A DNA stretch of 64,000 bases from Candidatus Omnitrophota bacterium. Lineage in GTDB: Bacteria; Omnitrophota; Gorgyraeia; Gorgyraeales; Gorgyraeaceae. A model generated the notes under the pieces. It was not told where the DNA came from, did not search any database, and worked only from the letters and a program-made list of their open reading frames with translations. Position numbers and translations under genes: made by a program. The stretch lies in the NCBI GenBank assembly GCA_018824145.1, contig JAHJHC010000032.1:5330-69329 (forward strand), read 5' to 3'. This document shows, piece by piece, positions 4,153 to 56,254 of this stretch; positions within the stretch are counted from its first letter, which is position 1, and the number at the start of each line of letters is the position of its first letter.

Positions 4153-4153
4153 G

Positions 4154-34900: not shown

Positions 34901-37900
34901 GTCGCATGGGCAACGCTCTCAACCCTTATACGTATATCATTGTCAGGAGGAGTAACTTGCTTGGTAACAGGGCAATCTATCTTCGGCCATGAAAACGAAT
35001 CTACATTTGATATACCACTCGCTATAGTACCACCCCAACCCCCAGTTCCTCCCTCTGTATCATATTTTACATTCACAGTCTGTACACCGTTTGTTCCTGT
35101 GCCTCCGCCTTCTGTCTCCCATGTAATATTATAGTTAGTAGTTCCTACATAAACAGTTCCAGTAGATGGAGAAAGATTGACAAACCTTGCCTTGATAGTA
35201 AGTTTATCTGCAACAGATATAGATTCTATGCGATCATCGTCTTTTGCCCTGATTTTTATCCTTATCTGTGAATTCAAACCATTGTCTCCAACCTTAAAAA
35301 CAGTATCATCATCTGGTATAGTCCATGTATATGACTCATCAGTTGCAGTAACTACACCTGGAGTATCAACAATAGCATTAGTGTAGTTATCAGAACCATT
35401 ATTCTTTGAATAATAAATATAAATGTCTCCTATGCCTGAACCTTCTGCATCCCAGATAATAGCATTCTGGGCCCCGCATTCCCAATCAGGGCTCACAGCA
35501 GGAGAGCCGGCATTCTGCGGAGGTGTTGTAAGCTCCAGACTCCCAAGGATAGCAAAGTTATTTAGTGATGCGTCACTTACATCATCTTCATCTCCTACCT
35601 TAACAGAATACACCTTTATCTTACATTGCTGGCTTACAATGCCCGGAAGATTCTCAATGGTCCAAGTGTAATAAGACTCATCCTCATATGTAGTATCATA
35701 ATTATTTTCAGAAGGGATGGAGCCGCCTAGTAAGGCATCATAGTCAGTGCCGCCATTTGTCGAGTATGCTATCATTACATCTCCAAAATCAAAATCAACA
35801 GGCTTCCACCTTATATCCATTGTCTCGCCTATTGTCTTCACTATACCTGTAGCATCAGGATAGCTCAGCTTGATCTGGGGTTTTACAGCAAAATCAGCTG
35901 TCCCTGTATTTGATTCACCAGCAGTCCCTGTAACCAGATCTTCATCTCCCTGTAAGGCCACCATTATCATATCGTTTGCCCCTTCATGCACAGGAAGGAC
36001 TGTCCAGTTGAATGTTCCAGCTGTGATGTCAGTTGTATCAGGCGTGGTCAGTTCGTAAGTATAGTTGCTTCCGCTGTTCTTTGAGAGCATTATCTTGGCC
36101 CATCCGGTTATAGATCCGTTCACATCCCAGGTTATAGCAGTTGTCTCACTTGTGTCAGAGATCTTAACAAAATTTGTAGTCGGAGCTGTAACTACTATAG
36201 ATCCTTTTATCTTGAATGCAGGGCTTTCATGATATATATTCGTCAGACTGTAGTCCTGGACCTTTACATAGACTTCATTATCCAGGTCATTAGGGATAGT
36301 CCATGCATATTTTAAATCAGTTGAAGGCTTATCTACTCCAGGGGCTATTTCAGCGTAGCCACCAGCCCCTTTCTTATAAAACACCTTTACCTTATCATCA
36401 GTTGTGCTCCCCTTTAAAGTCCACTCTATATCCCTCTGGGTTCCATATCTCCACACATCATTAAGTTCCGGCTTTGTAATTGTAACTACCTGCTCTATTG
36501 TGAAGACAGCAGCTGATTCATCATCAATATCACTAGGATATGCAGCACTCTCTATTCTGATCATGGCTTGTGTAGATTCCGGAGCTGGAACAGGATCCCA
36601 TGTCCAAAAACACTGGTTCGAATATGTAGTATTATAATTATTCGCCACATCGATCCCGACTCCGCCGTTTAACTTTTCCCATGTACCTCCAGTATTCCTT
36701 GAAATGGATATATATACCTTATTATTACCAACAGGCCCTACATCACCTTCGTATTCCCATATAATGTCATGGGAAGTACCCACCTGCCATGAAGGCGCGC
36801 CACCATCATGCTGAATAAGGGTCACGGTAGCGTCTATGTCAAAAACAAGGTCAGATTCATCCTCTACTCCTGTAAGCTCAGCCTGTGAACTCTCTATCTT
36901 GACCATGGCTTCATCACTTATAGGCAACTCCGGAGTCCACTGGTAATAGGATTGGTTCGTATAGGTAGTATTGTAATTTAGATTCGCTGCTACTTCATCT
37001 ATATACTCCCATGCAACACCGCTATTCCTTGATACGTAGAGTTTCACATTGGTCGTGGACAGGTTGCTTGTATTTGACCATACAATATGTCCGTTATCAC
37101 CTGTGGTACTGCCTGTAATCCATCTCTCATCTCCACCCATAGGCTCTACAAGTGTTATTGAACCTTGTTCTATAGTGATGCTGGCGCTTTCGCCGTATAC
37201 AGTCGAATCCGCTATGTCAGACTGGACTACCTTTATCTTGGCGTAATCATCCTGAGCAGGCTGGACAAGACTAAAAGGTATATCCCAATCATATGAACTC
37301 CCAGTGCCGGATGCCCCTGCAGGCTCATCCAATTTAATAGGCGTGTTATATGATAAGCCGTCATTATTTGAATAAAATATATTTACCGTGCCATCAGTAA
37401 TGCCTGTACCGAAATGTCCATGTTTCATCCAGGAAATAGTCTTATCCTGCTCACCAAGATACCAGGTTGTAGGAGAAGTAGGAGTTACACTGGTTATACG
37501 GCCTCTTAATGTAAACGGCTGAGATATAGTTTGTACAGTTGTATTCGGGGAATCAGGGTCATAATTTGAAGTTATCTTAATGACACAATTCGTGCCGATT
37601 AAGTTCTCTCCGTCTATTGCAGCAGGTATTGTCCAGGGAAAAGTGCCGCTTCCGCCGTCGCCTGCTCCGGTACCGACACTGGTAGTAGTGCTTAACGGCG
37701 TACTAAGGTAAGTCTGTCCTCCGTCAATAGAAAGCTTTATTGTAACAGTTGTCGTACTTAAAGTATCCAGGTGCCCCAAATAGTCCCACGTAATATCCTG
37801 CTGTTCCCCTATCCTCCAGGTATTTGGCGGCTGGTCAATAGTCAAAACTCCTTTTATAATAAAATCCTCATTGGATATATCAATGTTTCTTGCTGACATA

Positions 37901-42103: not shown

Positions 42104-44101
42104 TTACTCCCCCTCTTCTATACCCTTCTCCGAATACACTGCCTTCAAATGCCCCTTAATCTCAGCATTATCCGGCAAAAGAGAAGCAGCTTTTTTCAAG
42201 TAACCAAAGGCTTCATCCAAATCCCCTTTTCTATAATAAGCCCAACCCAGAGTATCCAAGGTTTCTGCACTTTCCGGATCAATAGATAAGGCCTTCTTAA
42301 GTAAGCCTATAGCCTCTGTAAAGTTATTCCTCTCAAGATAAATATAACCAAGATTATTATATGCAGCTATGCCCAATTCAGGGTCAAGTTTAATACTCTT
42401 TTTATAATATCCGATTGCTGTCTCATAATCAACTAATAAATCATACATAAGCCCAAGGTTATAGTATGCCTCTGCATAATCAGGTTCTAATTCAACGGCT
42501 TTTTTATACAATTCCGATGCCTCACTGACCTGATCTAAATCTTCATATAACACCCCTCCAAGATTATTATAAGCCTCTGCATAATCAGGCTTGATTTGAA
42601 TGGCCTTTCTAAAAGAGTTTATTGCATCATTTGTCTTTTTGCCCATATCGCGGTATGTGACACCTAAATTATTATATGTCCATGCATATCCTGAATCTAC
42701 CTCTAAGGCATTCTGATACGAATTGAGAGCATCTTCGTATAAACCAGTATTGTAGTACGCAGTACCAAGGTTATTGTAAGCCCTGTGGCTATTCGGAGAA
42801 GCCTCCACTGTCTTTGTCCAAAAAGTAACAGAGTCTCTCCAATCCAGGTTACGTTGCATGACAGTATAGGAATAGAAACTGACTACGGTAAAGATTAACA
42901 CTATAGTCGATCTTCTTGCTATCCTTTGTGGAAAAAACCGTAAGTCTAAAGAAGACAATGCTTGAACACCTATGGCAAGTAAAACGCATAATCCCACAGA
43001 AGGGATATATAGGCGCTGTTCGGCAATCGGCCTTGAGACTAAAAATATAATGTTAGAGATAGGTAAAAGGGTCAAAAATATCCAGAAAAGAAAGAATAAA
43101 ACCAGTCTCGAATGTCTAAATGCCTTAATGACTATAACTGTAAGGACAACGAGTAATAATGCAGAGAAAAGCACTGCGGGTTCAAAGAAAGATCCAGGTA
43201 TACTGAAAGACCGCTCGGCATTAAGATTAAAAGGAAATACAAGCAGTTTAACATAGTAACCTATGGTCTTTATGACAGTTAATATTTTAGGATACAGGCT
43301 GATCTTTACAACTAGATTCTTGCCTGAACCTACTGTTCCCAGGATAATTATTTTAAAAATAATATAAAGAATCGCAAGGCCCCAAAAAGGCAATGTCTTA
43401 GTTATAAAACCCTTGTATTCTTCTTTCGGAACAAAACATATAACATACAAGACTAATATAAACGGCAAAGTAATGGCCATTGCCTTTGAAAAAAGAGCGA
43501 GTATAAAACATAAAAGGCTTGCACTATAAAAAACTATACGGCTTTTCAATCTATCTTGAAGCCTGAATTTTGTAAAAAGAATGAATGATAAAATAAAAAA
43601 TATTAATGCCAAGGGATCAGAACGATTCTTTATCCACGTAATAGATTCAGTATGGATCGGGTGGACTGCAAAGAAGAGCGCTGAGAGAAAAGCCAGGTTA
43701 AATAACCTCCCGTGCCTTGTTTGCAGCGCGACTATATTAAGTATAAAGAAATATATTAAGATAACATTTATTATATGCAAGAAAAGGCTGGTCAGATGAT
43801 AGCCAAAGGGGTTTAATTTCCATAAAGAATAATCAAATGCAAAACTAGCCATTAATATAGGACGAAAATTCACCTTCTCCTCTTGATTATGCTCTCTACT
43901 CAACATTAAATAAAATTGCCTCCAATACCGGGGAGTGAATAAAGATGGGATATTCTTTGGATTACTAATATACTCCCCCTTCGACACAATAACCTTATCA
44001 TCCCAGATAAAGGAATTTTTGAAGGTATTGGAGTAGACAATAATAGATATAAGTATTAAAAATATAATAAAAATTGTGTGTTTACTGATAGCAGTATCCA
44101 T
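42104..44101 (-). CDS. TMTC/DUF1736-type GT-C membrane glycosyltransferase-like protein with C-terminal TPR repeats (paralog 5).
   Basis: The 665-aa protein has the N-terminal motif NSFIWDDKVIV and PFGYHLTSLFLHIINV, followed by about 10 TM helices and a C-terminal TPR array (AYNNLG.. repeats). Confidence 0.75.
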   Translation of the reverse strand: MDTAISKHTIFIIFLILISIIVYSNTFKNSFIWDDKVIVSKGEYISNPKNIPSLFTPRYWRQFYLMLSREHNQEEKVNFRPILMASFAFDYSLWKLNPFGYHLTSLFLHIINVILIYFFILNIVALQTRHGRLFNLAFLSALFFAVHPIHTESITWIKNRSDPLALIFFILSFILFTKFRLQDRLKSRIVFYSASLLCFILALFSKAMAITLPFILVLYVICFVPKEEYKGFITKTLPFWGLAILYIIFKIIILGTVGSGKNLVVKISLYPKILTVIKTIGYYVKLLVFPFNLNAERSFSIPGSFFEPAVLFSALLLVVLTVIVIKAFRHSRLVLFFLFWIFLTLLPISNIIFLVSRPIAEQRLYIPSVGLCVLLAIGVQALSSLDLRFFPQRIARRSTIVLIFTVVSFYSYTVMQRNLDWRDSVTFWTKTVEASPNSHRAYNNLGTAYYNTGLYEDALNSYQNALEVDSGYAWTYNNLGVTYRDMGKKTNDAINSFRKAIQIKPDYAEAYNNLGGVLYEDLDQVSEASELYKKAVELEPDYAEAYYNLGLMYDLLVDYETAIGYYKKSIKLDPELGIAAYNNLGYIYLERNNFTEAIGLLKKALSIDPESAETLDTLGWAYYRKGDLDEAFGYLKKAASLLPDNAEIKGHLKAVYSEKGIEEGE

Positions 44102-44108
44102 TATAATC

Positions 44109-46169
44109 TCAATCTTCAGTCTTCTGGAGATTTTCTAAATTCCCCTTGGCATCTTCGTTATCAGGATCAATCTCTAATATTCTCTCCCAATGACCTCTTG
44201 CCTTATTGATAAGTCCCTTATCGCGAAATATACGCGCAAGGTTTCTGTGGGCCTTTATATGATCAGGAGCTAGCTCAATAGTTTTTTCCAGGTATGTTAT
44301 TGCAGTGTCTTTTTCTCCTAAATCAGTATATAACGCGCCTATATTATTGTATGCATCAGCATATTCTGAATCAAGTTCAATAGCCTTCTTATAGTATCTC
44401 AATGCCTCTCCCTGAAGCCCTGATGAGTCATAAAATAACCCCAAGTTATAATAGGCCTCTGCATAGTCAGGTTTAAGCTCTATAGCCCTTTTATAGAGAA
44501 TCTCTACCTGACTAATCTGGCCGGACTCTGAATATAGGACCCCTGCAAGATTATTATATGCCTCTGCATAATCAGGTTTCAGTTCAATAGCCCTTTTTAG
44601 ATGCAGAAAGACATTATCAACTAAGCCATTTTCTATATAAAGCACCACACCAAGGTTACTATAGGCCTCTGCATAGCCAGGCATAAGTTCAATGGCCTTC
44701 TTGAATGCATCTATCGCCATCTCATTTTCTCCTATGTCGCGGTACGCGGCGCCAAGATTATTATACGCCATAGCATATTTTGGATCGATTTCTATAGCCT
44801 TTTTATATGAAGCTATGGCCTCCTGATATTGTCCGATATTATAGTATGCAGCGCCAAGATTATTATGGGTCCTCGCATTATTCGGAGATAAAGAAACTGC
44901 CTTTGTCCATAGTGTTAACGGCTTTCTCCAATCAAAGTTACGATTTATAGCAATAGTCGAGTAAAAAATAAATATGGCTATAGTAAATAACACTGCTAAG
45001 TTTTTCAAGATTTTACGGGAAAAAAACCTTGATTCTAAAAAAGGGATCGCCCTAATACCCATCGCAAGTATAATACAAAAACCCAATGAAGGGATGTAAA
45101 GGCGCTGTTCAGCGATAGGCCTTGCATACAAAAATATGATATTTGAAGCAGGAAGTAATGTTATGAAAAACCACAGGATTCCGAATGATACCATCCTGGA
45201 ATATTTTAATCCCCTTATAACCATAATCGCCAAAACCAACAACATCAGTGAAGATAGAACAACCCCTATCTCAAAAAACGATTTGGGGACAGATAGAAAA
45301 TGTTCGATATTAAGATTAATGGGGAGAATTAAAAGTTTCATATAATAACCCATGGTCTTAATGACTGCCAGGATATGATAATGTATGCCGAGCTTAATAA
45401 TGCTCTCATCCGAGAGCACACTTATAAGGCCCTTGAGCTTGAATGCAAGATAGAAAAATATAATTCCAAAATAGCTTCCTATACCGACCAATGCGCCTTT
45501 ATATTCTTTTTTTGGAAGGAAATAAATAGCATAGAGGATTAACACAAGGGGCAGTGTAATAGCTGTTTCTTTTGAAAAAAGTGCAAGCACGAAAGAAATC
45601 TGGCTTGCAAAATAAAGAATAATGCGGCCCCTGAGTACTTTTTCCTTAGAGACGTATTTTATAAAAAAAAGGAATGAAAGGAGTAAAAATAATAAACTCA
45701 ATAAATCAAAACGATTCTTTATCCATGCAATAGACTCTGTATGTACAGGATGCACGGCAAAGAATAATGCGGCAAGAAAAGGCAGGTCAAGTAAAACCCC
45801 CTCCTTTTCAGGCGGCCTTACTAATCTAAAAATAATAAGATATATCAGGATAACGTTTAATATATGCAGCAATAAGTTAGTCAAATGGTAACCAAAAGGT
45901 CTTAGATTCCATATTAAATAATCTAATGTAAAACTTGCAAGACTTACCGGTCGATACTGTCCCTTACTGCCCGGATAATAATAATTCCAATATTTAGGAT
46001 TAAATAAAAAGGGGATATCTTTTAAGCTCTTCGTATATCTATTATCAACGATCAACTCTTCTTCGTCCCACACGAACGGATTCTTGAAGGTATTGGAGAA
46101 AACAATAATAGAGATAAGAATCAATAAGATAAGAGGTATAAAATATTTCCTGGTATTATATTCTTCCAT
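44109..46169 (-). CDS. TMTC/DUF1736-type GT-C membrane protein with TPR repeats (paralog 4).
   Basis: The 686-aa protein has NPFVWDEEELIV and PFGYHLTNLLLHILNV, a multi-TM core and TPR repeats. Confidence 0.75.
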   Translation of the reverse strand: MEEYNTRKYFIPLILLILISIIVFSNTFKNPFVWDEEELIVDNRYTKSLKDIPFLFNPKYWNYYYPGSKGQYRPVSLASFTLDYLIWNLRPFGYHLTNLLLHILNVILIYLIIFRLVRPPEKEGVLLDLPFLAALFFAVHPVHTESIAWIKNRFDLLSLLFLLLSFLFFIKYVSKEKVLRGRIILYFASQISFVLALFSKETAITLPLVLILYAIYFLPKKEYKGALVGIGSYFGIIFFYLAFKLKGLISVLSDESIIKLGIHYHILAVIKTMGYYMKLLILPINLNIEHFLSVPKSFFEIGVVLSSLMLLVLAIMVIRGLKYSRMVSFGILWFFITLLPASNIIFLYARPIAEQRLYIPSLGFCIILAMGIRAIPFLESRFFSRKILKNLAVLFTIAIFIFYSTIAINRNFDWRKPLTLWTKAVSLSPNNARTHNNLGAAYYNIGQYQEAIASYKKAIEIDPKYAMAYNNLGAAYRDIGENEMAIDAFKKAIELMPGYAEAYSNLGVVLYIENGLVDNVFLHLKRAIELKPDYAEAYNNLAGVLYSESGQISQVEILYKRAIELKPDYAEAYYNLGLFYDSSGLQGEALRYYKKAIELDSEYADAYNNIGALYTDLGEKDTAITYLEKTIELAPDHIKAHRNLARIFRDKGLINKARGHWERILEIDPDNEDAKGNLENLQKTED

Positions 46170-47652
46170 AATTCACGACCTTTTTTTTAAAATGTGACAA
46201 ATAGTACTTTATATATATAATAAAACGGAAATCTCTTTTACAAAGTCCGATTGCTAACTGAAAGACAATAACTATAAAGCCAGGAATTATATGAAAATGC
46301 CTGTACAGCTTTTTCTTTATTATAAATCTCTTTAAAAAAGAAGGCATTACCGGAAACAACTTGTACAACTTTTCAAAATTGTCTTTCCATGCTTTATGAT
46401 GCGGGTCATTTATAGAGTCTTGATGAAAAAAATCCCCTACATTGCCTTTCTCAAAAGATTCGACATCTTTAGTATAGATTATTCCCAATTCTATAGCCCT
46501 GTCTACAATAGGCAGTTTCGGATAATACGCCAGGTAATAACATTTTAAACGATTAAAATATTTATGTGAATACATAAATTCAAGTGCTAACTCATAATCC
46601 TCTTCCTTGACCAAGGGTAAGCCGAATATTAAATCCACATCATACCTTAATTTCAGCTTGCCGCATATACTAAAGGCCTTGTCTATCTGGTCATTTGTCT
46701 CATTACGATGCAAAATATCCTTCCGTATACTCTCATTAAACGTCTGCACACCGAAATCTATACCGTAACAGCCTGAATCTTTCATTAATCTAATAAGGTC
46801 TTCGTCTACAAAACTTACATGACCCTCACATCTGAAAGGCACGGAAATCTCTTTTTTATATTCATGCAAAAATCCGCTCAGCCATTTTTTGTCCGTAAAA
46901 AACACGCTGTCAAAAAACATAACCCTTTTAAAATTATACCGTTTTTTCATTGCCTTTAATTCACTTATTACAGATGAAGCGCTCCGCCTTCTAAAATATC
47001 CATCACTATAAATCTTATGAAAATAAGCCTCGCAGCAATAACTGCAGCTAAAAACACAGCCCCTTGCTGTCATCACCATGTAATCATCTCTGTAATTTAT
47101 ATAATTCTCAAACAGTCCTTTATCCGGAAACGGCAATGAATCAAGATCCTTAATAGGCGGCCTTAGAGGATTCTTTATTACCTCGCCTCCTTTTTTATAC
47201 CATACATTAGGTATACTGTACTCTGGTCTATTTGATGAAAGAGTGTTTACTAAATCTAAAAGTGCATATTCACCTTCTCCGATAATAACAAAATCTACAA
47301 AATCATTCTTTACCACCTCTTCCGGAACAAGACTTACATGCACTCCCCCAAATACGGTCTTAACATTCATCTTTTCCTTTATGGTACGCGCAACATCACA
47401 GGTCCACTGATAGTTACTGGTATAAACCGAAAATGCAACGAGATCAGGGGTTGAACTCTCGATTCTGGAAATGACCTCATTTTTCCGGTCAAACACCCTT
47501 TCCAAAAAAGGGATATAAAACACATTGTCCTCTGTCCCGAAAAGTCCTGGATCATATGCTAATGAAATCTCATGGCCTGCTTTCTTCAAGACGCTTGACA
47601 AGTACTCTATACCTAAATGTTCTCTCCCCAAATGCACAAAGGTGACTTTCAT
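46156..47652 (-). CDS. B12-binding radical SAM enzyme (class B rSAM).
   Basis: The N-terminus is a B12-binding Rossmann-like domain (..DLVAFSVYTSNY..VFGGVHVSLVPEE). The radical SAM cluster motif is ARGCVFSCSYCCE (CxxxCxxC). Confidence 0.75.
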   Translation of the reverse strand: MKVTFVHLGREHLGIEYLSSVLKKAGHEISLAYDPGLFGTEDNVFYIPFLERVFDRKNEVISRIESSTPDLVAFSVYTSNYQWTCDVARTIKEKMNVKTVFGGVHVSLVPEEVVKNDFVDFVIIGEGEYALLDLVNTLSSNRPEYSIPNVWYKKGGEVIKNPLRPPIKDLDSLPFPDKGLFENYINYRDDYMVMTARGCVFSCSYCCEAYFHKIYSDGYFRRRSASSVISELKAMKKRYNFKRVMFFDSVFFTDKKWLSGFLHEYKKEISVPFRCEGHVSFVDEDLIRLMKDSGCYGIDFGVQTFNESIRKDILHRNETNDQIDKAFSICGKLKLRYDVDLIFGLPLVKEEDYELALEFMYSHKYFNRLKCYYLAYYPKLPIVDRAIELGIIYTKDVESFEKGNVGDFFHQDSINDPHHKAWKDNFEKLYKLFPVMPSFLKRFIIKKKLYRHFHIIPGFIVIVFQLAIGLCKRDFRFIIYIKYYLSHFKKKVVNYGRI

Positions 47653-47654
47653 CG

Positions 47655-49130
47655 TTATGTATGTCCTTTGATATAGAAATCCAATTTCTTGGCCTCTTCA
47701 TGATAGGCAATAAATTTCGGATCTTTTATAGATATATCTTCCTGGCTAAAGACCATGTCCAGAAAAGCTGAGAATTTCCTTTTGAATTCCGTAAATGAGC
47801 GGACTTTTAGTACAGCCTTTAATAAAAAATACGGTTGGGAATGGTAGCTTACATAGGCCCATCGTGCCATATGATCTATCTCTTCGTTCGTAAGTTTAGT
47901 CCAATGCCGGGGCAAAGGCCGGTCAGTCTCTTTTCCCAAGATCCAGTCCTTCCAGTAATCCTTCCCCATATTGTGCACCATTTCTTTCCATAAAGGAGTC
48001 AGGGGTTTTGCCAGGCACTTCGAAAACTGGACATAGTCTAACTTGAGTTCTTTGGCGAATCGGACTGTCTTTTTTACTGTTTTCTTAGTCTCTCCTGGAG
48101 AACCTATTAGGAAAAACCCCAATGCCCTTATCCCTAATTTTTTGGTAGCACGTATTGTCTCCCGGATCTGGTCCAATCTGATACCCTTTTTTACTCTATC
48201 AAGCATCTCTTGGGAGCCGGATTCAATCCCATAGTAGATCCTTCCACATCCTGCCTCTTTCATCTCTTTTAACATCTCTTTATCAATATCCACTCTCGAT
48301 CTGCATGCCCACAGGATATCAAGGTTTCTCTTCCTTATTTCGTGACATATAGCTATTGTCCTATCTTTATCGACTGTAAAATCATAATCGAAGATATCGA
48401 TCTCCCGGATACCATATTTATTATAGCACTCCTCCATCTCATTAACTACAGTCATTGGACGGCGTGGATTGTAGACGGTCCTGCCTGCCTCACAGAAGGT
48501 ACAATGGTACGGACAGCCAAGACTGGTAATCATGACAGTAAAATTCTTCCTCTCAGTGGGAAACTCGGCATAAAGCTCATTCGGCAAAAGGTCTCTGGCA
48601 GGATTAGGATATTTGTCAAAATCTACTAGTTTAGTAGGATTGATTTTTATCAGGCCCTTATCTTTATAAACAAGGCCATCCACGTCTTCCAGTCTTCCCT
48701 TACCTTCTAATGCAGAAAAAAGCTGGGGTATGGTATCTAAGGCCTGTTCGATTACTCCATAGTCTATCTCAGGATGGCTGATCGACTCCTCAGGATAGAC
48801 ACGCAGATTATAACCTCCTACTACTATTGGAATATCCAATCCTTTTTTAAGATACCGGATCCATTCCAATGTCTCAGGAAACATATAAGTAGTCATCATA
48901 AATCCCATTATGTCCGGCTTAAAACTCTTAAGTCTATCTAATACCCCTTCTTTAGTAAGATTTAAGGTCCGGGCATCAATAATTATTACTTCATGGCCGG
49001 CCTGACGTGCTATAGCTGCTACCCAGGCAAGGCTTAAAGGCGGAAACATCCCAAAATACTTCTGAACAATCCTTAAATTCTCCTCATGGACCTTGTATTT
49101 AAAAGGATTAAAAACTAAGGCAAATCTCAT
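47655..49130 (-). CDS. B12-binding radical SAM enzyme, a paralog of the adjacent gene.
   Basis: B12-binding N-domain (..DIMGFMMTTYMF..IVVGGYNLRVYPEE) and SLGCPYHCTFCEA (CxxxCxxC). Confidence 0.75.
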   Translation of the reverse strand: MRFALVFNPFKYKVHEENLRIVQKYFGMFPPLSLAWVAAIARQAGHEVIIIDARTLNLTKEGVLDRLKSFKPDIMGFMMTTYMFPETLEWIRYLKKGLDIPIVVGGYNLRVYPEESISHPEIDYGVIEQALDTIPQLFSALEGKGRLEDVDGLVYKDKGLIKINPTKLVDFDKYPNPARDLLPNELYAEFPTERKNFTVMITSLGCPYHCTFCEAGRTVYNPRRPMTVVNEMEECYNKYGIREIDIFDYDFTVDKDRTIAICHEIRKRNLDILWACRSRVDIDKEMLKEMKEAGCGRIYYGIESGSQEMLDRVKKGIRLDQIRETIRATKKLGIRALGFFLIGSPGETKKTVKKTVRFAKELKLDYVQFSKCLAKPLTPLWKEMVHNMGKDYWKDWILGKETDRPLPRHWTKLTNEEIDHMARWAYVSYHSQPYFLLKAVLKVRSFTEFKRKFSAFLDMVFSQEDISIKDPKFIAYHEEAKKLDFYIKGHT

Positions 49131-51418
49131 TCTTTCTCCTTCTCAAGATACTCTAACGCCTTCTTGGCAGTTTCATTAAAAGGGTCTATCTCCAAAATTT
49201 TCTCCCATTGGTCTTTGGCTAAATTGAAAAGCTCCTTATCATAATAGTAAACAAGTGCGAGATTGTTATAGGCTACGAGATAGTCAGGTTTAAGTCCAAT
49301 GGCTTTTTCAAAAGATTCTATTGCCTTTTCATACTGGCCTAAGTAACGATAGGCTATACCTAAACTATTGTAAGCGTCCACATTATCTGGTTTAAGCTCA
49401 ATGGCCTTCTTGCAATACATAACTGCTTCTTCATATAACCCTATGGTATTAAGCATCATCCCGAAATTGTAATAGGCGTTTGCATGCTCCGACTCTAATT
49501 CAATGGCCTTTTTGCAAAGCTCCATGGCCTCACGTATACGATGAGGTTCTTTATTATAAATAAGAGCCCCTAGGCTATTATAGGCATCAGCATAGTCAGG
49601 TCTTAATTCAATGGCCTTTTCATGATACCTGACTGCATCCTGATATAATCCTAAAGAGCTGTGTATCAATCCGAGATTGTTATATGCATTGGCATAGCCG
49701 GGTTTTAATTTAATTGCCTTTTTGCAGAGTTTCACAGCCTTACCGACCTGGCCTAATTCTTTAAAAAGAACCCATCCGAGATTATTATAGGCATTGGCAT
49801 AGTTTGGTTTAAGTTCTATAGCCTTTTTATAATACCGTATTACCTCATCTATTTCAGCCGATTTTCTATAGAGCATTGTCCCGATATTATCATAGGCCCG
49901 GCCATAACGTGGACTTATCTCAATGGCCTTTTTAAATGCTGCCATGGCTTCTTCATCCTTTCCGATCTTGCGATATACAATACCAAGGTTATAATGCATC
50001 CATGCGTCATCCGCACTTATTTCTATGGCTTTTTTATATGCTCTAATAGCGTCTTTATAACGACCCGCCTGGTAATAAGCAATCCCTAGATTATTATGAA
50101 CCCTTGAAATATTTGGAGAGTATTCGAGTGTCTTTGACCAAAATGTAAGAGGATCCCTCCACTCAAAGTTGCGTCTAACAGTGCTAACAGAATAAAACGC
50201 AGCTATAAAGAGAGTCAATAACATTGCCAAATTCCTAAATCCTTTTTTATAAGAAAGCCTTTCACCTAAAAAAGACAGGCCTTTAATGCCGAGAGCGAAG
50301 AATAAACAAAAACCTACGGAAGGAAAATAGAGACGCTGCTCGGCAATCGGTCTTGTATGTAGAAATATAATGTTAGAAACAGGTAAAAGCGTTACAAAAA
50401 TCCATAAGATAGAAAATAAGAGCAAATTAGAATATCTACCTCTTTCTCTGCCTAAAAATATCTTTATAACTGCAGCTATTATAACGCATAATAACGCAAA
50501 GGATAAAAATACCTCAGGCTCAAAAAAAGATCCCGGGATGTTAAATATACGTTCGGCATTGAGTTTAATCGGAAATAAAAGCATGTTTACATAAAAGCCA
50601 AGGGTCTTGATAACTGTGAGAACATTGGGATAAAACTCTAACCCGGACATATTGTCAGATAACCCAATAGTTCCCAGGAATGTCGCTTTAAACATAAGAT
50701 AAAGGAATAATAACCCAAAAAACGGGATGGTCTCTCTTATAGCTATATTACGTTCTTTCCTGGATAGAAAACATACTGCATAAAGGACCAAAATAAGAGG
50801 TAAGGTGACAGCCATTGCTTTAGATAAAAGTGCAAATATAAAGAAAATAAGCGCTCCGGCATAAAAATAAATAGGGGATTCTATCCTTTTCTGCGATATA
50901 TGCTTAATAAAAAATAAAAAGGATAAAAGAAAAAACAATAAACCAAATAGGTCAGAGCGGTTTTTTATCCAGGTAACGGATTCAGTATGCATAGGATGAG
51001 TGGCAAAGAAAAGTGCGGCAAGGAATGCTAAATGCCGTCTCTTATCATACTTTTCCACTAATCTATAAATAAGAAAGTATAGCAGTATCACGTTAAGTAT
51101 ATGCAATAGAAGATTGGTAAGATGGTAGCCGAAAGGATTTAATTTCCATAGATAAAAGTCTAAAGCAAAACTCGCCATAATTATCGGCCGGTATCCTACA
51201 CTAGTTACTTCAATAAATTCCCTGTTTCTCGGTAAGAAGGATTGCCTCCAATATATAGGAGTGAAGAAAAAAAAGACGTTTTTTAGACTTTTGATATACT
51301 TGCCTCTTACAATAACAGTCTTATCATCCCACATAAAAGAGTTTTTGCACGTATTAGAGAATATAGCGATACATATAACTATAAGCAGGATAATAGGTAT
51401 TATATTTTTATTTCCCAT
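49127..51418 (-). CDS. TMTC/DUF1736-type GT-C membrane protein with a long TPR array (paralog 3).
   Basis: The 763-aa protein has NSFMWDDKTVIV and PFGYHLTNLLLHILNV. The C-terminus carries at least 9 TPR repeats. Confidence 0.75.
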   Translation of the reverse strand: MGNKNIIPIILLIVICIAIFSNTCKNSFMWDDKTVIVRGKYIKSLKNVFFFFTPIYWRQSFLPRNREFIEVTSVGYRPIIMASFALDFYLWKLNPFGYHLTNLLLHILNVILLYFLIYRLVEKYDKRRHLAFLAALFFATHPMHTESVTWIKNRSDLFGLLFFLLSFLFFIKHISQKRIESPIYFYAGALIFFIFALLSKAMAVTLPLILVLYAVCFLSRKERNIAIRETIPFFGLLFLYLMFKATFLGTIGLSDNMSGLEFYPNVLTVIKTLGFYVNMLLFPIKLNAERIFNIPGSFFEPEVFLSFALLCVIIAAVIKIFLGRERGRYSNLLLFSILWIFVTLLPVSNIIFLHTRPIAEQRLYFPSVGFCLFFALGIKGLSFLGERLSYKKGFRNLAMLLTLFIAAFYSVSTVRRNFEWRDPLTFWSKTLEYSPNISRVHNNLGIAYYQAGRYKDAIRAYKKAIEISADDAWMHYNLGIVYRKIGKDEEAMAAFKKAIEISPRYGRAYDNIGTMLYRKSAEIDEVIRYYKKAIELKPNYANAYNNLGWVLFKELGQVGKAVKLCKKAIKLKPGYANAYNNLGLIHSSLGLYQDAVRYHEKAIELRPDYADAYNSLGALIYNKEPHRIREAMELCKKAIELESEHANAYYNFGMMLNTIGLYEEAVMYCKKAIELKPDNVDAYNSLGIAYRYLGQYEKAIESFEKAIGLKPDYLVAYNNLALVYYYDKELFNLAKDQWEKILEIDPFNETAKKALEYLEKEKE

Positions 51419-53135
51419 TAATCTCCCTATTTACGACATGGTTCGAGTTGCGATATGGTTCGAGCAGGGCCAAAAACTTAGGGTTTACCTCAGCCCTTAG
51501 CTCAATCGCCTTATCACAATATTCAACAGCCAAAGAATACTCTTTTTGATAATAATAAGCTACTGCCAGATTATTATATGCACCGGCATAATCTGGGTTC
51601 ATCTCTATGACTTTATTATATACGGATATGGCCCTTTCTTTTTTACCGCTTATCATATACATATTCGCAAGGTTATTATACGCATCTATATACTCGGGAT
51701 TGAGTTCGATGGCCTTCTTAAATGATGCTATTGCCTCTTCGTTTTTCTCAATAGCCTGATAAGCGACGCCTAGATTATTATGCGCAAGGACATACTTCGG
51801 ATAGATTTCTATGGCCTTTTTATAAGAGGCTATGGCCTTTTTAACCCTGCCAATATCGTAGTATTCTACTCCGAGGTTATTGTAGGCCCTGGGACTATTA
51901 TAGGAAGCCTCTGCGGTTTTCTGCCAAAAGGCAATAGGATTCCTCCAGTCAAAATTTCTTTTAATGGTGCTGGAAGAATAGAAGATAAATACGGTAAGGG
52001 CCAATAATACCGCAATCTTTTTAAGACCCAGGTTCCTGATACAGATAGCCAGGATAACGCAAAGGCCTACTGAAGGGATATAAAGGCGCTGTTCGGCAAT
52101 AGGCCTTGGGTATAGAAAGATTATATTGGAAACCGGTAGAATGGTTAAAAAAATCCATAGGACAATAAAGAAAAAGAACTTTGAACTTTTAAATTTTTTT
52201 ATAGCTATAATTGATGTGGAAACTACTAATGTCAAAGCAAAAAAGACCCTGGGCTCGAATATAGACTTAGGAATACGCATCACATGTTCTGCATTAAGCC
52301 CGACCGGAAAAATAAGCAGTTTTAAATAATAACCGAGTGTCTTGAAGACCATGAGTATATTAGAATAAAGCCCTATCTCAGAAATATATACCGCTGAGAC
52401 TATATTTATCAGATCTCCAAACTTTATGACAAGATAGACTATCATCAATCCAAAAAAAGGCAATATAGCAATCTTTGCTTTCTTTTGTTTATCTTTAGGG
52501 ATAAAGCTTAAGATATAAAAGAACAATATAAACGGTAAGGTAATAGCCATCTCTTTTGAAAGAAGCGCAATAGGGAAAAATAAAAGCGAACCGCAGTAAG
52601 ATAGCATCCGAAACCTTTTTCTTTCTTCTGACGTATACCTCATAAAAAGAAGGACCGATAAGAGAAAAAACAGCAACGATACAAGATCGAAACGGTTCTT
52701 TATCCATGTAACGGATTCGATATGTATGGGATGTGTGGCGAAGAATACCGCACTAAGGAAAGGGATGTTAATCAATCCTTTCCTGACATTCGGCTCCAGC
52801 AATTTAAATATAAAAAAATATATAAGTACGACATTTAAGATATGCAGCAAAAGATTAGTCAAATGATACCCAAATGCATTGTCTTCCCAAAAAAAGTAGT
52901 CTAATGCAAAGGTCATTAAGGTCACAGGCCGATATTGCCCCTTCAGCCCAGGATAATAATGGTTCCAGTATTGGGTGCTGAACAAAAAAGGGATATATTC
53001 TAAATCTTCAATATATTTATTCTCAACTATTAGATCCCTATCATCCCACATAAAGGGGTTCTTAAAGGTATTCGAGAAGATAACAGCTGATATAACTATA
53101 AGCAATATAATAGGTATTGCATGTTTATTTTTCAT
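51408..53135 (-). CDS. TMTC/DUF1736-type GT-C membrane protein with TPR repeats (paralog 2). I take the start at the internal Met (MKNKHAIPIILL...) rather than the track start at 53261.
   Basis: The protein has NPFMWDDRDLIV and AFGYHLTNLLLHILNV. The 53261 start would overlap the upstream gene by 137 nt, whereas the internal Met gives an 11-nt overlap like the other paralogs. Confidence 0.7.
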   Translation of the reverse strand: MKNKHAIPIILLIVISAVIFSNTFKNPFMWDDRDLIVENKYIEDLEYIPFLFSTQYWNHYYPGLKGQYRPVTLMTFALDYFFWEDNAFGYHLTNLLLHILNVVLIYFFIFKLLEPNVRKGLINIPFLSAVFFATHPIHIESVTWIKNRFDLVSLLFFLLSVLLFMRYTSEERKRFRMLSYCGSLLFFPIALLSKEMAITLPFILFFYILSFIPKDKQKKAKIAILPFFGLMIVYLVIKFGDLINIVSAVYISEIGLYSNILMVFKTLGYYLKLLIFPVGLNAEHVMRIPKSIFEPRVFFALTLVVSTSIIAIKKFKSSKFFFFIVLWIFLTILPVSNIIFLYPRPIAEQRLYIPSVGLCVILAICIRNLGLKKIAVLLALTVFIFYSSSTIKRNFDWRNPIAFWQKTAEASYNSPRAYNNLGVEYYDIGRVKKAIASYKKAIEIYPKYVLAHNNLGVAYQAIEKNEEAIASFKKAIELNPEYIDAYNNLANMYMISGKKERAISVYNKVIEMNPDYAGAYNNLAVAYYYQKEYSLAVEYCDKAIELRAEVNPKFLALLEPYRNSNHVVNREINGK

Positions 53136-55314
53136 CGATAACCCTATCTCGATATGGCTCAAGCAAGGCCAAAAATTCTGGTTTAACCCCTGAGCCAAGT
53201 TCAATGGCCTTATCACAATGCTCGATCGACAGGTCATATATCCGCTCGTAATAATACACAACTGCCAGATTGATGTGTGCTATTCCATATTCAGGGTCTA
53301 TTATTATGGCTTTTGTATATGAATTTATGGCCTTCTGATTATCTTTCATGGCCACATATACATTCCCGAGATTATTATACGCTTCTGCATAAGCTGAGTT
53401 GAACTCAATGGACTTTTCAAGGAAGTCTATAGCTTTATCGTTCTCTCCCATCACAGTATATATATTCCCTAGATTATTATATGCGCTTGCATTATACGGA
53501 TCGATTTTTATGGCATCCTGAAATGAGGTTATCGCCATTTGGTTATTGCCAAGCTTATGATATGCTATGCCAAGGTCATTATAGGCCCTAGAGAAATCAG
53601 GATTGATTGCCAAGGACTTTAAATACGAATCTATGGCTTTCTGGTCTTTTCCGAGATCCCTATACGCATTTCCGAGGTTATTATAGGCCAGTGCGTAATC
53701 GGAATCTATACTTACGGCTTTCTTATATGCATGTATGGCCCGTTCTGTCCTTCCGTCAGCACGATAAAGATTACCAAGACTGTTGTAGGCAGGCGCATAA
53801 TAAGGATTTACTTCTATGGCCTTCTTAAAAAGGTCCATAGCCCCTTCGTTATTATTGCCTATATCTACATATGTAATACCAAGGTTATTATAAACTTCGG
53901 CATTTGTCGGATCGATCTCTATTGCCCTTTCAAAAAATGTAATTGCCCTTAGAGACTGGCCTATTTCGCTATATATATTGCCGAGGTTATTGAACGCGTC
54001 TACGAGCTTTGGATCAAGTTCCAGTGCCTTTTCATACGACGCAATAGCATCTTCGACACTACCCCTGTCTCTGTATATATTGCCGATATTATTATATATT
54101 CCTGCGCTGTCTGGCGCATACTGTAAAATCCTTTTATAAAGCACCATAGGCTCTTTCCAGTAAGTATTCTGTCTAATGGTCAAATAAGAATAGAAACCCG
54201 ATACAACTGTTATAAGCAGTATAGTAAGTATCTTTAGATTTTTATTTCTATATAAATACACTGCTCCATTTGCCAATATAAGGAAAAATCCTATTGACGG
54301 CAGATACAACCAATGTTCAGCCATATAGGCATTTATAGGATAAAGATTGGATAAAGGGATAAGTGATATAAAAAACCAATATATAGAGAACGACAGCGGA
54401 TTGTTTTCCTTCTTTTTTATAAAACTATAAATTAATAAAGACACTGTTAATAAAATCCCTGCTATTGCCATAGGATCAACCCAGCTAAATACACTATTGC
54501 CGTACTGCATATGAAGGTCTGAAGGTAAAAATAAAAGCCTTATGTAATTAGCTATAGCGACAAAGAAACCCGGCATCCTCTGGAATACCGTAGTAGAAAA
54601 AACACTGCTATCAGGCAAAAAAGATTTTAGAATCGTTACTCTTGAAATGATGTAAATAAATGCTAAACACGATATAGGCACAAACGCCTTAATATTAAAT
54701 CTCTTCCTGAAAGTATAATGGTATAAAAAGAGCAACGCGGGAAAAATAATACTTAATTCTTTACATAAAAGAGCTAATATGTAAGTTATTAACATCACAA
54801 AATATGCACCAGGTTTTCCCGAATTTATATATTTTATATAACAAATAAATGAGGCGAGCATAAACAGCATAAATAAAGAATCCGATCTTCCAGATATATA
54901 AGCTATAGCTTCACTATGTATAGGATGGATAATAAATAAAATGCTTGTAATTAAAGACAAAAGTGCATCTTTATAAAGAATGGCAATCAGCCAATATACA
55001 GCCAGGCCGACTAAGATATGCAACAAGATATTGGTAAGATGATAACCTGAAACATTTAATCTCCATAATGAATAATCAAGACGGTAGGTAAATATCTGAA
55101 GCGGGTGATAAAGACTGCTCCTTTTTCCGACACCGGCTTCCACATCTTGCGTAAAAATCTCCGGTAAATAATCCCATTTTTTTATAAATGTATTATTTCT
55201 TACTAAATCCTCATCGTCCCAGACAAACTTATTGTTTAAAGAATTTACGTAGACACCAAGACCTAGGATGATTATTACAAAGATAGCTATAATAGTAAAC
55301 TTATGTCCTGACAT
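53125..55314 (-). CDS. TMTC/DUF1736-type GT-C membrane protein with TPR repeats (paralog 1, the most divergent).
   Basis: The 729-aa protein has NKFVWDDEDLV and VSGYHLTNILLHILV. The C-terminus carries about 9 TPR repeats. Confidence 0.7.
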   Translation of the reverse strand: MSGHKFTIIAIFVIIILGLGVYVNSLNNKFVWDDEDLVRNNTFIKKWDYLPEIFTQDVEAGVGKRSSLYHPLQIFTYRLDYSLWRLNVSGYHLTNILLHILVGLAVYWLIAILYKDALLSLITSILFIIHPIHSEAIAYISGRSDSLFMLFMLASFICYIKYINSGKPGAYFVMLITYILALLCKELSIIFPALLFLYHYTFRKRFNIKAFVPISCLAFIYIISRVTILKSFLPDSSVFSTTVFQRMPGFFVAIANYIRLLFLPSDLHMQYGNSVFSWVDPMAIAGILLTVSLLIYSFIKKKENNPLSFSIYWFFISLIPLSNLYPINAYMAEHWLYLPSIGFFLILANGAVYLYRNKNLKILTILLITVVSGFYSYLTIRQNTYWKEPMVLYKRILQYAPDSAGIYNNIGNIYRDRGSVEDAIASYEKALELDPKLVDAFNNLGNIYSEIGQSLRAITFFERAIEIDPTNAEVYNNLGITYVDIGNNNEGAMDLFKKAIEVNPYYAPAYNSLGNLYRADGRTERAIHAYKKAVSIDSDYALAYNNLGNAYRDLGKDQKAIDSYLKSLAINPDFSRAYNDLGIAYHKLGNNQMAITSFQDAIKIDPYNASAYNNLGNIYTVMGENDKAIDFLEKSIEFNSAYAEAYNNLGNVYVAMKDNQKAINSYTKAIIIDPEYGIAHINLAVVYYYERIYDLSIEHCDKAIELGSGVKPEFLALLEPYRDRVIDEK

Positions 55315-56254
55315 ATCTATTTGGGTTAACCAGTCTATTTAAGAATGGTTTTATAAAAAACAATCCGAATAAAATAGGGCAGATTACATTAACAAAAGAT
55401 AGTAAAAGACCGCTTCCTAAAAGCCTATCTGGAACCGCATATTCTGAAAAAAATACTAGAATAGCTGATTCCCTGGTGCCTAATCCCCCGAATGTTATTG
55501 GTAAGGATGCGAGAAGCAGAACAATAGGGGTAAAAATCAAAAAGGCCTCAATGGGTATTTCTATGCTGAATGCCTTAAAAAGAAAAAAGGCGTTTATCAA
55601 TTTGCATCCTTCAAACCCTAAAGAATATATAAATAAAGTAACTAGCGATTTTATACTAAACTTTTCGATAAGGACTTTGAATATTTCTCTAGGCCGAGGG
55701 CTCATCTTTCTAGAGTTCTTAATAAAATTAATAAGTATTGAATTTCTAAAAAGTATTATTATAAAAAAGAAAACTAAAAATATTACGGCAAAATAAATCT
55801 TTTGATATAGCTCAAGTTTATAGAAAAACCAGCCGACAGAAATAAAAGAGATTAAAGCAAAAAAGCTAAAACTATATACTAATATTACGGAACTTATGCC
55901 CCTGGCATAAGAGAAATCGTGTCTTTTGTGTAAATACGCCACCATAACGGATTCTCCGATTTTGAATGGAAGGATACCTTTTATAGGTGCACTACCCATG
56001 CGTAGTATAAGGGTCTCAAAAAAGGGGATATTACACCCTAATAGTTCAAGTATTTTTTTATACCTTGCCGGAGAAAAACATGTATGCGCTATAAATGAAA
56101 AAAAAATTGCTCCAGCAAGGAATCTAACCTCTATCTGTGCCAATAGGTTCTTTACTTCAGAGAACCGAATCTTTGAAAATATAATAGTAAAAACAGAGAT
56201 GGTTATTACCCAGGTGATAATAAATCTCAGTAATTGTTTTCGCTGGTTAATCAT
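55301..56254 (-). CDS. Flippase-like polytopic membrane protein (lysyl-PG-synthase TM / YbhN-like domain).
   Basis: The 317-aa protein has about 8 TM helices and a C-terminal LPITFGGLGTRESAIL motif. It sits between the GT9 and TMTC genes. Confidence 0.4.
   Translation of the reverse strand: MINQRKQLLRFIITWVITISVFTIIFSKIRFSEVKNLLAQIEVRFLAGAIFFSFIAHTCFSPARYKKILELLGCNIPFFETLILRMGSAPIKGILPFKIGESVMVAYLHKRHDFSYARGISSVILVYSFSFFALISFISVGWFFYKLELYQKIYFAVIFLVFFFIIILFRNSILINFIKNSRKMSPRPREIFKVLIEKFSIKSLVTLFIYSLGFEGCKLINAFFLFKAFSIEIPIEAFLIFTPIVLLLASLPITFGGLGTRESAILVFFSEYAVPDRLLGSGLLLSFVNVICPILFGLFFIKPFLNRLVNPNRYVRT

Follow-up and report, generated by a model that had tools for sequence, protein, structure and literature searches.

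In the three-component systems ArnC/ArnEF/ArnT, GtrB/GtrA/GtrC, CsbB/GtcA/YfhO and the archaeal AglD/AglS, a sugar is loaded onto polyprenyl phosphate in the cytoplasm, flipped across the membrane and transferred outside by a GT-C glycosyltransferase, and we know of no such system with built-in radical S-adenosylmethionine (SAM) genes. What is known of radical SAM sugar chemistry comes mainly from antibiotic pathways (AprD4, GenK, DesII) and from two cases of lipid head-groups (HpnJ, calditol synthase). HpnJ, for example, remodels a lipid-anchored aminosugar by ring contraction on the way to the cyclitol-ether side chain of hopanoids. Here we describe two adjacent radical SAM genes, rSAM-B and rSAM-A, that lie within an array of GT-C genes in a Candidatus Omnitrophota bacterium. 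The window, meaning the whole stretch of DNA analyzed, spans 64,000 nucleotides (assembly GCA_018824145.1, contig JAHJHC010000032.1, positions 5,330 to 69,329; positions below are those of the window) and is read almost entirely on the minus strand. By comparison of loci across several phyla, we found that rSAM-B regularly belongs to a glycosylation module whose core is a flippase-like protein together with GT-C transferases.

A radical SAM pair in a conserved glycosylation neighborhood

The pair consists of the following genes:

47655..49130, minus strand: rSAM-B, 491 amino acids, radical SAM enzyme with a B12-binding-like domain (Pfam, homologues, AlphaFold 2 model)
46156..47652, minus strand: rSAM-A, 498 amino acids, second radical SAM enzyme with a B12-binding-like domain (Pfam, homologues, hydropathy)

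A first-pass annotation of this DNA had reported two tandem B12-binding radical SAM open reading frames (ORFs) at 46156-49130, and both the coordinates and the domain content proved exact. Each protein carries the CxxxCxxC motif together with a Radical_SAM domain (PF04055) above the Pfam gathering score (81.2 bits for rSAM-B and 55.9 bits for rSAM-A, cutoff 29.5), which places both in the radical SAM superfamily. The motif cysteines, C206/C210/C213 in rSAM-B and C199/C203/C206 in rSAM-A, are kept in 99-100% of 120 homologues of each protein. Both also possess the N-terminal B12-binding domain (PF02310) of class B enzymes, at 68.1 and 65.4 bits respectively (cutoff 32.1), and cobalamin use by either enzyme is putative. 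The two were also described as paralogs, which holds in a distant sense and not as a close pair. Over 345 residues only 24% are identical (E = 2e-28), and the orthologues of each protein form a separate series: those of rSAM-B are 62-82% identical and spread across phyla, and rSAM-A homologues are 47-73% identical. Because of this low identity and the separate orthologue series, the two are, judged by sequence, ancient and non-redundant paralogs rather than the outcome of a recent duplication. rSAM-A ends in a hydrophobic helix (residues 452-473, mean Kyte-Doolittle hydropathy 2.2) that is conserved in an alignment of 20 orthologues, and this helix suggests that the enzyme works at the membrane.

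To compare neighborhoods, rSAM-B orthologues were aligned (mean column identity 77%), and with this alignment 80 loci were collected from species-representative genomes. After contig look-ups were added and duplicates removed, 82 loci were analyzed by ORF calling, BLAST and iterated hidden Markov models (HMMs). These loci come from Omnitrophota, Elusimicrobiota/Endomicrobiales, several Desulfobacterota families, Auribacterota and Planctomycetota/PVC bins. In forty of the 82, rSAM-B is flanked on each side by 5 kb or more (hereafter full loci), and neighbors were counted within 10 kb of the gene. A GT-C gene, of the window type or of the PMT_2 type, was present in 30 of the 40 full loci and an LPG_synthase_TM flippase-like gene in 23, so that one or the other accompanied rSAM-B in 37. 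Another B12-type radical SAM gene was found in 26 full loci and a GT9 glycosyltransferase in 17. Conserved co-occurrence with TMTC-like genes had been named by the first-pass annotation as one point to check, and these counts bear it out; the conserved synteny supports a functional link between the radical SAM pair and the GT-C array.

Immediate neighbors show a similar picture. Directly upstream of rSAM-B, GT9 is the commonest gene (15/69 loci), and directly downstream, again in 69 loci, we found radical SAM (n = 18), GT-C (n = 9), flippase-like (n = 8) and DegT aminotransferase (n = 6) genes. A Pfam census of 143 otherwise unlabelled neighbors is led by Radical_SAM (16), DegT aminotransferase (7) and GT2 (7). 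Two GT2 clusters occur near rSAM-B in relatives, in 10 and 6 loci, and GT1 is also among the recurrent sugar-enzyme neighbors. A small radical SAM protein of about 330 amino acids (Radical_SAM plus Fer4_12) stands beside rSAM-B/rSAM-A in 25 loci (for example at 13019-14005 in locus L001 and 13052-14038 in L004) and is absent from the window. Modules hold one to five radical SAM genes, and some loci have up to five of the B12 type within 20 kb. The five GT-C copies of the window are at the high end, the maximum in other loci being four.

Several loci illustrate the range of the module. An Endomicrobiales contig (L006, 10001-15650) harbors a minimal version, consisting of rSAM-B, rSAM-A, a flippase-like gene and a PMT_2 gene, with no GT9. 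Two Desulfobacterota contigs carry GT9 plus radical SAM, rSAM-B, rSAM-A, the small radical SAM gene, a flippase-like gene, a radical SAM gene and GT-C plus tetratricopeptide repeat (TPR) genes. In one Omnitrophota relative (L005), the module is flanked on one side by lpxB, msbA-like, waaA, three lpxL-like, lpxK and GT9 genes and on the other by GT9, Kdo (3-deoxy-D-manno-octulosonic acid) kinase, UDP-glucose dehydrogenase and AsmA genes; GT2 and Polysacc_deac_1 genes come after it, a layout reminiscent of Arn. This lipid A context was considered as a general feature and rejected: lpx, waaA and Kdo-kinase homologues were seen in only 1-2 of the 82 loci. We found no description of the module in the literature on Omnitrophota and radical SAM enzymes, on ArnT with radical SAM and cobalamin, or on heptosyltransferases with radical SAM enzymes.

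Operon layout and the GT-C enzymes

In the window, nine genes from 57499 to 42104 form an operon in which all gaps are at most 7 nt or the genes overlap. In transcription order these are GT9, the flippase-like gene, three GT-C plus TPR genes, rSAM-B, rSAM-A and two further GT-C plus TPR genes. Besides the radical SAM pair, the members are:

56258..57499, minus strand: GT9-family glycosyltransferase, first gene of the operon (Pfam Glyco_transf_9, 61.5 bits)
55301..56254, minus strand: LPG_synthase_TM (TIGR00374) flippase-like membrane protein (Pfam 93 bits; TIGR00374 58.3 bits, cutoff 43.2)
53125..55314, minus strand: GT-C plus TPR transferase, first of five and the most divergent (TPR Pfam matches; PMT 21.2 bits, cutoff 22.7)
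51408..53135, minus strand: GT-C plus TPR transferase, second (Pfam TPR; N-terminal alignment)
49127..51418, minus strand: GT-C plus TPR transferase, third, whose N-domain was modelled (AlphaFold 2, Foldseek, hhalign)
44109..46169, minus strand: GT-C plus TPR transferase, fourth, with KETAIT as an exact match to KE(T/Q)xxT (Pfam TPR; alignment)
42104..44101, minus strand: GT-C plus TPR transferase, fifth, last gene of the operon (Pfam TPR; alignment)

The radical SAM pair sits between the third and fourth members of a five-gene TMTC-like array, as had been annotated. Of the junctions given earlier, 3 nt and 14 nt, the 14-nt overlap (46156-46169) stands; the others are a 4-nt ATGA overlap (49127-49130) and a 2-nt spacer between rSAM-B and rSAM-A (47653-47654). 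For the second GT-C plus TPR gene, an ATG at 53135 (MKNKHAIP...) is preferred over the TTG at 53261 chosen by the ORF finder. The protein read from the ATG has an N-terminus that lines up with those of its four paralogs, and the overlap with the upstream gene is 11 nt from the ATG and 137 nt from the TTG, which is probably wrong as a start.

The GT9 protein reaches no equivalog cutoff for a lipopolysaccharide (LPS) heptosyltransferase; against NCBIfam heptosyltransferase II it scores 55.7 bits (cutoff 134.6). The flippase-like protein has six hydrophobic segments, and no HpnL model is among its NCBIfam matches. PDB matches were uninformative for both proteins. The operon thus combines a TIGR00374 'flippase-like domain' protein, of a type other than GtrA/ArnEF and with flipping as its predicted activity, with five GT-C genes.

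Assignment of the five GT-C plus TPR proteins required more than family profiles. Pfam detects their TPR half only, and none reaches the gathering score of a TMTC or PMT_2 family (TMTC_DUF1736; PMT_2, gathering score 26.1; PMT, 22.7). The first paralog at 53125-55314 matches weakly (PMT 21.2 bits, PMT_2 16.8 bits), and the isolated N-domains of the other four gave no PMT or PMT_2 match in Pfam. A profile search of PDB sequences with the TMTC-like N-domain likewise returned nothing at E ≤ 1. Direct assignment by Pfam or PDB profile was rejected, and the question was settled only by hhalign and structure prediction. Aligned with hhalign to eleven PMT_2-positive rSAM-B neighbors from other genomes, the five N-domains matched with 95.4% probability (E = 2e-8, 313 columns). 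The AlphaFold 2 model of the third paralog N-domain has a pLDDT (predicted local distance difference test) of 88 and a pTM (predicted TM-score) of 0.91, and its top 20 PDB matches in Foldseek are all GT-C enzymes (STT3, AglB, PglB, ArnT, DPY19, Pmt4, Pmt1/2 and EmbB). According to this model, the TMTC-like N-domain has a GT-C fold. The paralogs also bear the motifs that PMC7801869 sets out for TMTC enzymes, namely WDD/E (following helix 1), YRP, RxD, KE(T)xxT and E-x-R-x-Y. All five paralogs have W30 and D31, with D or E at position 32, and these positions are nearly invariant in 32 homologues; the acidic DD/DE motif expected of GT-C enzymes is thus found in the first extracytoplasmic loop. 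Since hhalign, structure prediction with Foldseek, and motifs agree, we accept a GT-C domain followed by a TPR array as a TMTC-like architecture without formal Pfam membership. The earlier label "TMTC" therefore holds for architecture, fold and motifs but not for Pfam family thresholds.

Genes beyond the operon include a SurA-N/cyclophilin-type periplasmic peptidyl-prolyl isomerase (58261-59757, minus strand) and a secretin (62020-63882, minus strand; Secretin, Secretin_N and STN), both upstream, which fit an export or surface-assembly neighborhood. The genes that bracket the operon, 40512-41780 and 57534-58268 (both minus strand), share a domain of about 115 amino acids without a Pfam family (35% identity, E = 2e-16). 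The former encodes an odd fusion of 422 amino acids, with an N-terminal Y1_Tnp/REP-associated tyrosine-transposase-like domain, a transmembrane helix, a coiled coil and the shared domain.

Placement of the pair and its possible chemistry

Neither radical SAM protein reaches the cutoff of any curated NCBIfam subfamily. For both proteins the top model is HpnJ (TIGR03471, equivalog cutoff 577.6); rSAM-B scores 170.5 bits and rSAM-A 107 bits, neither of them above 30% of that cutoff. BchE (TIGR02026, cutoff 481) is second for rSAM-B (143.1 bits; rSAM-A 90.5 bits), and the AprD4 family diol dehydratase model (NF033070, cutoff 500) gives 119.2 and 40.4 bits. The RiPP-maturing class B models (RiPP, ribosomally synthesized and post-translationally modified peptide) are also distant, with 126 and 104 bits for ApyD (NF050148, cutoff 750) and 81 and 75 bits for rSAM_ocin_1 (TIGR03975, cutoff 281.85), as is the 'lipid biosynthesis B12-binding/radical SAM' model TIGR04072 (110 and 92 bits, cutoff 360). 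Overall, the best models are HpnJ, BchE, ApyD, PhpK, BzaD and AprD4 for rSAM-B, and HpnJ, ApyD, MJ_1487 and a P-methyltransferase for rSAM-A. An exhaustive search of 1.84 billion cluster representatives placed rSAM-B orthologues in a single 50%-identity cluster (680 bits); more than 150 other 50%-identity clusters score 250-465 bits, and E ≤ 1e-30 is reached by 8,050 clusters. By these sequence relationships, rSAM-B belongs to a large clade without a characterized member identified in this analysis.

The clade has a further side. rSAM-B-like domains (28-32% identity, about 255-277 bits) were found within proteins of 900-2,600 amino acids, namely P0439 (2331 amino acids), P0441 (2633 amino acids), P0433, P0471 and P0500, and one large protein holds six stretches matching rSAM-B. 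Radical_SAM domains have been reported inside Omnitrophota giant proteins, and these large proteins echo those reports.

Among proteins of solved structure, rSAM-B is closest to AprD4 in the PDB sequence search (PDB 6fd2, 101 bits over residues 151-401), followed by MgmA (PDB 9ccb). For rSAM-A the closest is TokK (50 bits), and CysS is also among the matches. In a fold search with the rSAM-B model (pLDDT 78.7), AprD4 was again the best PDB match (TM-scores 0.70/0.75), with OxsB, MgmA and TsrM close behind. The E-values of these four lie within one order of magnitude, and the fold search was discarded as a means of telling cobalamin binders from non-binders near rSAM-B. AprD4 is a 1,2-diol dehydratase acting on an aminosugar that clusters with class B enzymes yet has no bound cobalamin (2026 review). 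Because AprD4 has such a domain without cobalamin, the 'B12-binding' label is not sufficient to predict cobalamin use by rSAM-B, still less methylation. An Rfam scan found no cobalamin riboswitch in the window, so that this sign of B12 dependence is absent. Four additional conserved cysteines of rSAM-B (235, 262, 276 and 295) align with cysteines of AprD4; an auxiliary Fe-S cluster was considered on their account and dropped as non-distinguishing.

Computation establishes the domain content, the tight operon, the GT-C fold, the recurring synteny and the lack of fit of the pair to any named subfamily. We propose that the pair are components of a conserved envelope-glycosylation module (GT9, flippase-like protein, GT-C, rSAM-B, rSAM-A) and carry out cytoplasmic radical tailoring of the sugar donor used by the GT-C enzymes, a reading that we hold to be about evenly balanced between right and wrong. 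Both radical SAM enzymes would act in the cytoplasm or at the inner face of the membrane, because such enzymes need SAM, a reductant and Fe-S clusters. As the catalytic loop and TPR domains of the GT-C enzymes would be periplasmic, the donor is then the sole possible meeting point of the two. rSAM-B, being most like AprD4 and HpnJ, would probably make a non-methylating radical change in a hexose or aminosugar, such as a dehydration/deoxygenation or a rearrangement, with the sugar carried on a nucleotide or on polyprenyl phosphate at the inner leaflet. The nucleotide-sugar route can be compared with the DegT/DesI-DesII logic. rSAM-A would probably act at the membrane, with the lipid-linked intermediate as its substrate, and of the two it may be the methylase. 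The flippase-like protein would next carry the tailored lipid-linked sugar to the periplasmic face, where the GT-C/TPR paralogs would pass it to periplasmic acceptors. Radical SAM remodelling of a lipid-anchored sugar has a precedent in calditol synthase. HpnJ, with its aminosugar substrate, is a second one.

Several points weigh against donor tailoring, beginning with the fact that the case is built from context and homology. The window operon has no GT2 polyprenyl-phosphate glycosyltransferase detectable by Pfam, which is a gap in the scheme because no enzyme is then at hand to load polyprenyl phosphate and make the lipid-linked monosaccharide donor. Among the 40 full loci, just 13 pair rSAM-B with an rSAM-A orthologue (at least 40% identity), and 10 lack a GT-C gene in the 10 kb around rSAM-B on either side. 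The neighborhood counts are, moreover, raw values, not calibrated to the frequency of GT-C genes in random 20-kb stretches.

A broader form of donor tailoring is possible but on balance doubtful. It would be a widespread, undescribed extension of the polyprenyl-phosphate-sugar/flippase/GT-C scheme in which radical SAM enzymes remodel the donor before flipping, with rSAM-B as an AprD4/HpnJ-like enzyme (for example, deoxygenation or carbocycle-forming rearrangement) and rSAM-A tethered to the membrane. In Omnitrophota, Elusimicrobiota, Desulfobacterota and PVC-group bacteria, envelope proteins or LPS would then bear a chemically unusual sugar, and in this genome the five GT-C paralogs might decorate a giant surface protein regulated by cyclic di-GMP (c-di-GMP). 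If donor tailoring is right, it would supply a physiological role, the tailoring of sugars for periplasmic GT-C glycosylation, for a large uncharacterized clade of 'B12-binding' radical SAM enzymes, radical SAM sugar chemistry would extend to envelope glycoconjugates of several poorly studied and mostly uncultured phyla, and there would be a biochemical handle on Omnitrophota surface chemistry. At present the finding is a solid genomic association, and we infer the chemistry beyond it.

The leading alternative, though unlikely, is that the module tailors the LPS inner core or lipid A: GT9 would add a heptose-like sugar to lipid A-Kdo at the cytoplasmic face, the radical SAM enzymes would modify a core sugar or lipid before MsbA export, and the GT-C enzymes would serve a separate, later step without a donor made by radical SAM chemistry. 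The frequency of GT9 around rSAM-B, where it is the commonest direct upstream gene, and the position of the L005 module among lipid A and LPS-core genes speak for this. However, across the 82 loci such lipid A genes flank the module in L005 only, with LpxL-like genes in L033, the window GT9 falls below every heptosyltransferase equivalog cutoff, the Endomicrobiales module lacks GT9 altogether, and the links of rSAM-B to flippase-like and GT-C genes are stronger than its link to GT9.

The first-pass annotation had proposed that the glycan or its lipid carrier is chemically modified, for example C-methylated, giving an unusual glycan on the surface protein. In the specific version of this proposal, the pair would be cobalamin-dependent C-methyltransferases acting on the glycan or its carrier, and the five TMTC-like enzymes would attach the methylated glycan to the adjacent protein of 10,669 amino acids. 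We consider this version improbable. The elements in question lie downstream of the operon:

7984..39993, minus strand: giant ORF, 10,669 amino acids, N-terminal signal anchor at residues 25-45
41964 to 41886, minus strand: c-di-GMP-I-GGC riboswitch aptamer RF03167, full length (60.5 bits, gathering score 59, E = 8.4e-12)
41878 to 41848, minus strand: terminator-like hairpin directly after the aptamer, a 13-bp stem then a T run

The giant protein is rich in Thr and Ser (Thr 11.4%; Ser plus Thr 19%), with 9% Asp and 0.5% Cys, and a Pfam scan of its first 10,000 residues matched a Kre9_KNH Ig-like domain and nothing else. It differs from the multi-enzyme 'Archaeovorin' type described for Omnitrophota giants, which are thought to mediate attachment or predation. 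Its signal anchor and composition make O-glycosylation of the protein plausible. By analogy with TMTC enzymes, the TPR domains point to proteins as acceptors, and the PDB and NCBIfam matches of rSAM-A include methylases (TokK, CysS, the P-methyltransferase). For rSAM-B, on the other hand, C-methylation is not indicated, as its nearest characterized relatives, AprD4, HpnJ and BchE, are not methylases and AprD4 works without cobalamin; the window is also without a cobalamin riboswitch. A conserved link between module and giant gene was rejected as well. A giant-like gene adjoins the module in 1-2 of the 82 loci, in L019 (28% identity over 379 amino acids, E = 1e-18) and weakly in L007, and about 80 have none within 10 kb. 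The 323-nt gap after the last GT-C gene holds the riboswitch, the hairpin and a promoter-like site at 42023-41995 (minus strand); ORF 40512-41780, ORF 40009-40515 and the giant gene follow shortly downstream. Because riboswitch and hairpin precede them, the giant gene and the two ORFs would be regulated as a unit separate from the operon, and a cyclic-dinucleotide riboswitch seems to gate the giant gene. For donor tailoring, then, the TPR domains and the adjacent Thr/Ser-rich giant secreted protein favor proteins as acceptors, and the GT9 link with the lipid A context of one relative favors LPS, which is equally open as acceptor. Beyond the giant gene lie F-type ATP synthase genes (OSCP, alpha, gamma and beta; 1911-6377, minus strand), and in the Desulfosudaceae locus L001 ATP synthase subunits B, C and A (18818-21482) directly follow the GT-C gene; this proximity may reflect an old synteny into which the giant gene was inserted.

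Somewhat less probable still is modification of non-glycan membrane lipids, in which the enzymes would act on acyl/alkyl chains or head groups, as do Grs, Hgm, Mss and ladderane-associated radical SAM enzymes, LPG_synthase_TM would flip the product and the link to GT-C would be incidental. This would suit the hydrophobic tail of rSAM-A, the LPG_synthase_TM family, known from lysyl-phosphatidylglycerol flipping, the TIGR04072 matches and the lipid-modifying radical SAM enzymes reported in Omnitrophota genomes. Those matches are far below cutoff, though, the PDB sequence matches do not include the solved tetraether synthase, and the recurrent neighbors are sugar enzymes (GT9, GT-C, GT2, DegT, GT1), with no lipid-synthesis genes among the listed families. 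Peptide modification, whether of a RiPP or of protein side chains, by ApyD-, PoyC- or MgmA-type class B enzymes and possibly on the giant protein before export, seems very improbable: ApyD and rSAM_ocin_1 matches and the second place of MgmA for rSAM-B are set against scores far below cutoffs, a dominant glycan context and a neighbor census with no RiPP-associated family, in a survey that included no dedicated search for precursor peptides, leader peptidases or RiPP recognition domains. Finally, membership in the hopanoid (HpnJ/HpnR) or bacteriochlorophyll (BchE) pathway, the assignment that the first-pass annotation had named as fatal to its view, is effectively refuted despite the leading rank of the HpnJ and BchE models and the broad family shared by HpnL and the flippase-like gene, for scores are far below both cutoffs, the more than 150 clusters at 250-680 bits stand nearer to rSAM-B than its HpnJ score does, and no squalene-hopene cyclase (shc), hpnH, hpnI, hpnK, other hpn or bch genes were found in the window, in Pfam-annotated relatives or in the 25 families of the neighbor census.

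Comparison with described systems

AprD4 is the closest solved relative of rSAM-B by sequence and fold. In both, a radical SAM barrel comes after a Rossmann-like N-domain, the four extra cysteines align, and the substrate of AprD4 is an aminosugar. In contrast, identity is only about 21%, the AprD4 family score is far from its cutoff (119 of 500 bits), and AprD4 works on a soluble aminoglycoside in the apramycin pathway with the reductase AprD3, whereas rSAM-B stands in an envelope-glycosylation context. The hopanoid proteins HpnJ/HpnI/HpnK/HpnL resemble the module in that HpnJ is the best curated model and the hpn cluster includes HpnL of the LPG_synthase_TM family. They differ in that the scores are at most 30% of cutoff, the squalene-hopene cyclase/hpnH context is missing here, the flippase-like gene matches TIGR00374, with no HpnL model among its matches, and GT-C transferases are not part of the hpn pathway.

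The eukaryotic O-mannosyltransferases TMTC1-4 share with the window enzymes an N-terminal multi-pass GT-C domain, a C-terminal TPR array, multiple paralogs and the DD first-loop, YRP, RxD, KE(T)xxT and E-x-R-x-Y motifs. The window enzymes, unlike these, have neither TMTC_DUF1736 nor PMT_2 at threshold and are bacterial and periplasmic. The three-component systems correspond to the locus in their flippase-like and GT-C parts. AglD carries an LPG_synthase_TM-type domain (InterPro grouping), as does the flippase-like protein of the window, and the Arn-type GT2, deacetylase and DegT genes occur in relatives. In contrast to these systems, the window has no GT2, its flippase-like protein is of the MprF/AglD type and not the GtrA/ArnEF type, its GT-C enzymes bear TPR domains and occur in five copies, and radical SAM genes are built into the module. 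In summary, we rate glycosylation by a lipid-linked sugar and GT-C transferases as the known scheme and the predicted built-in tailoring by radical SAM enzymes as its new part.

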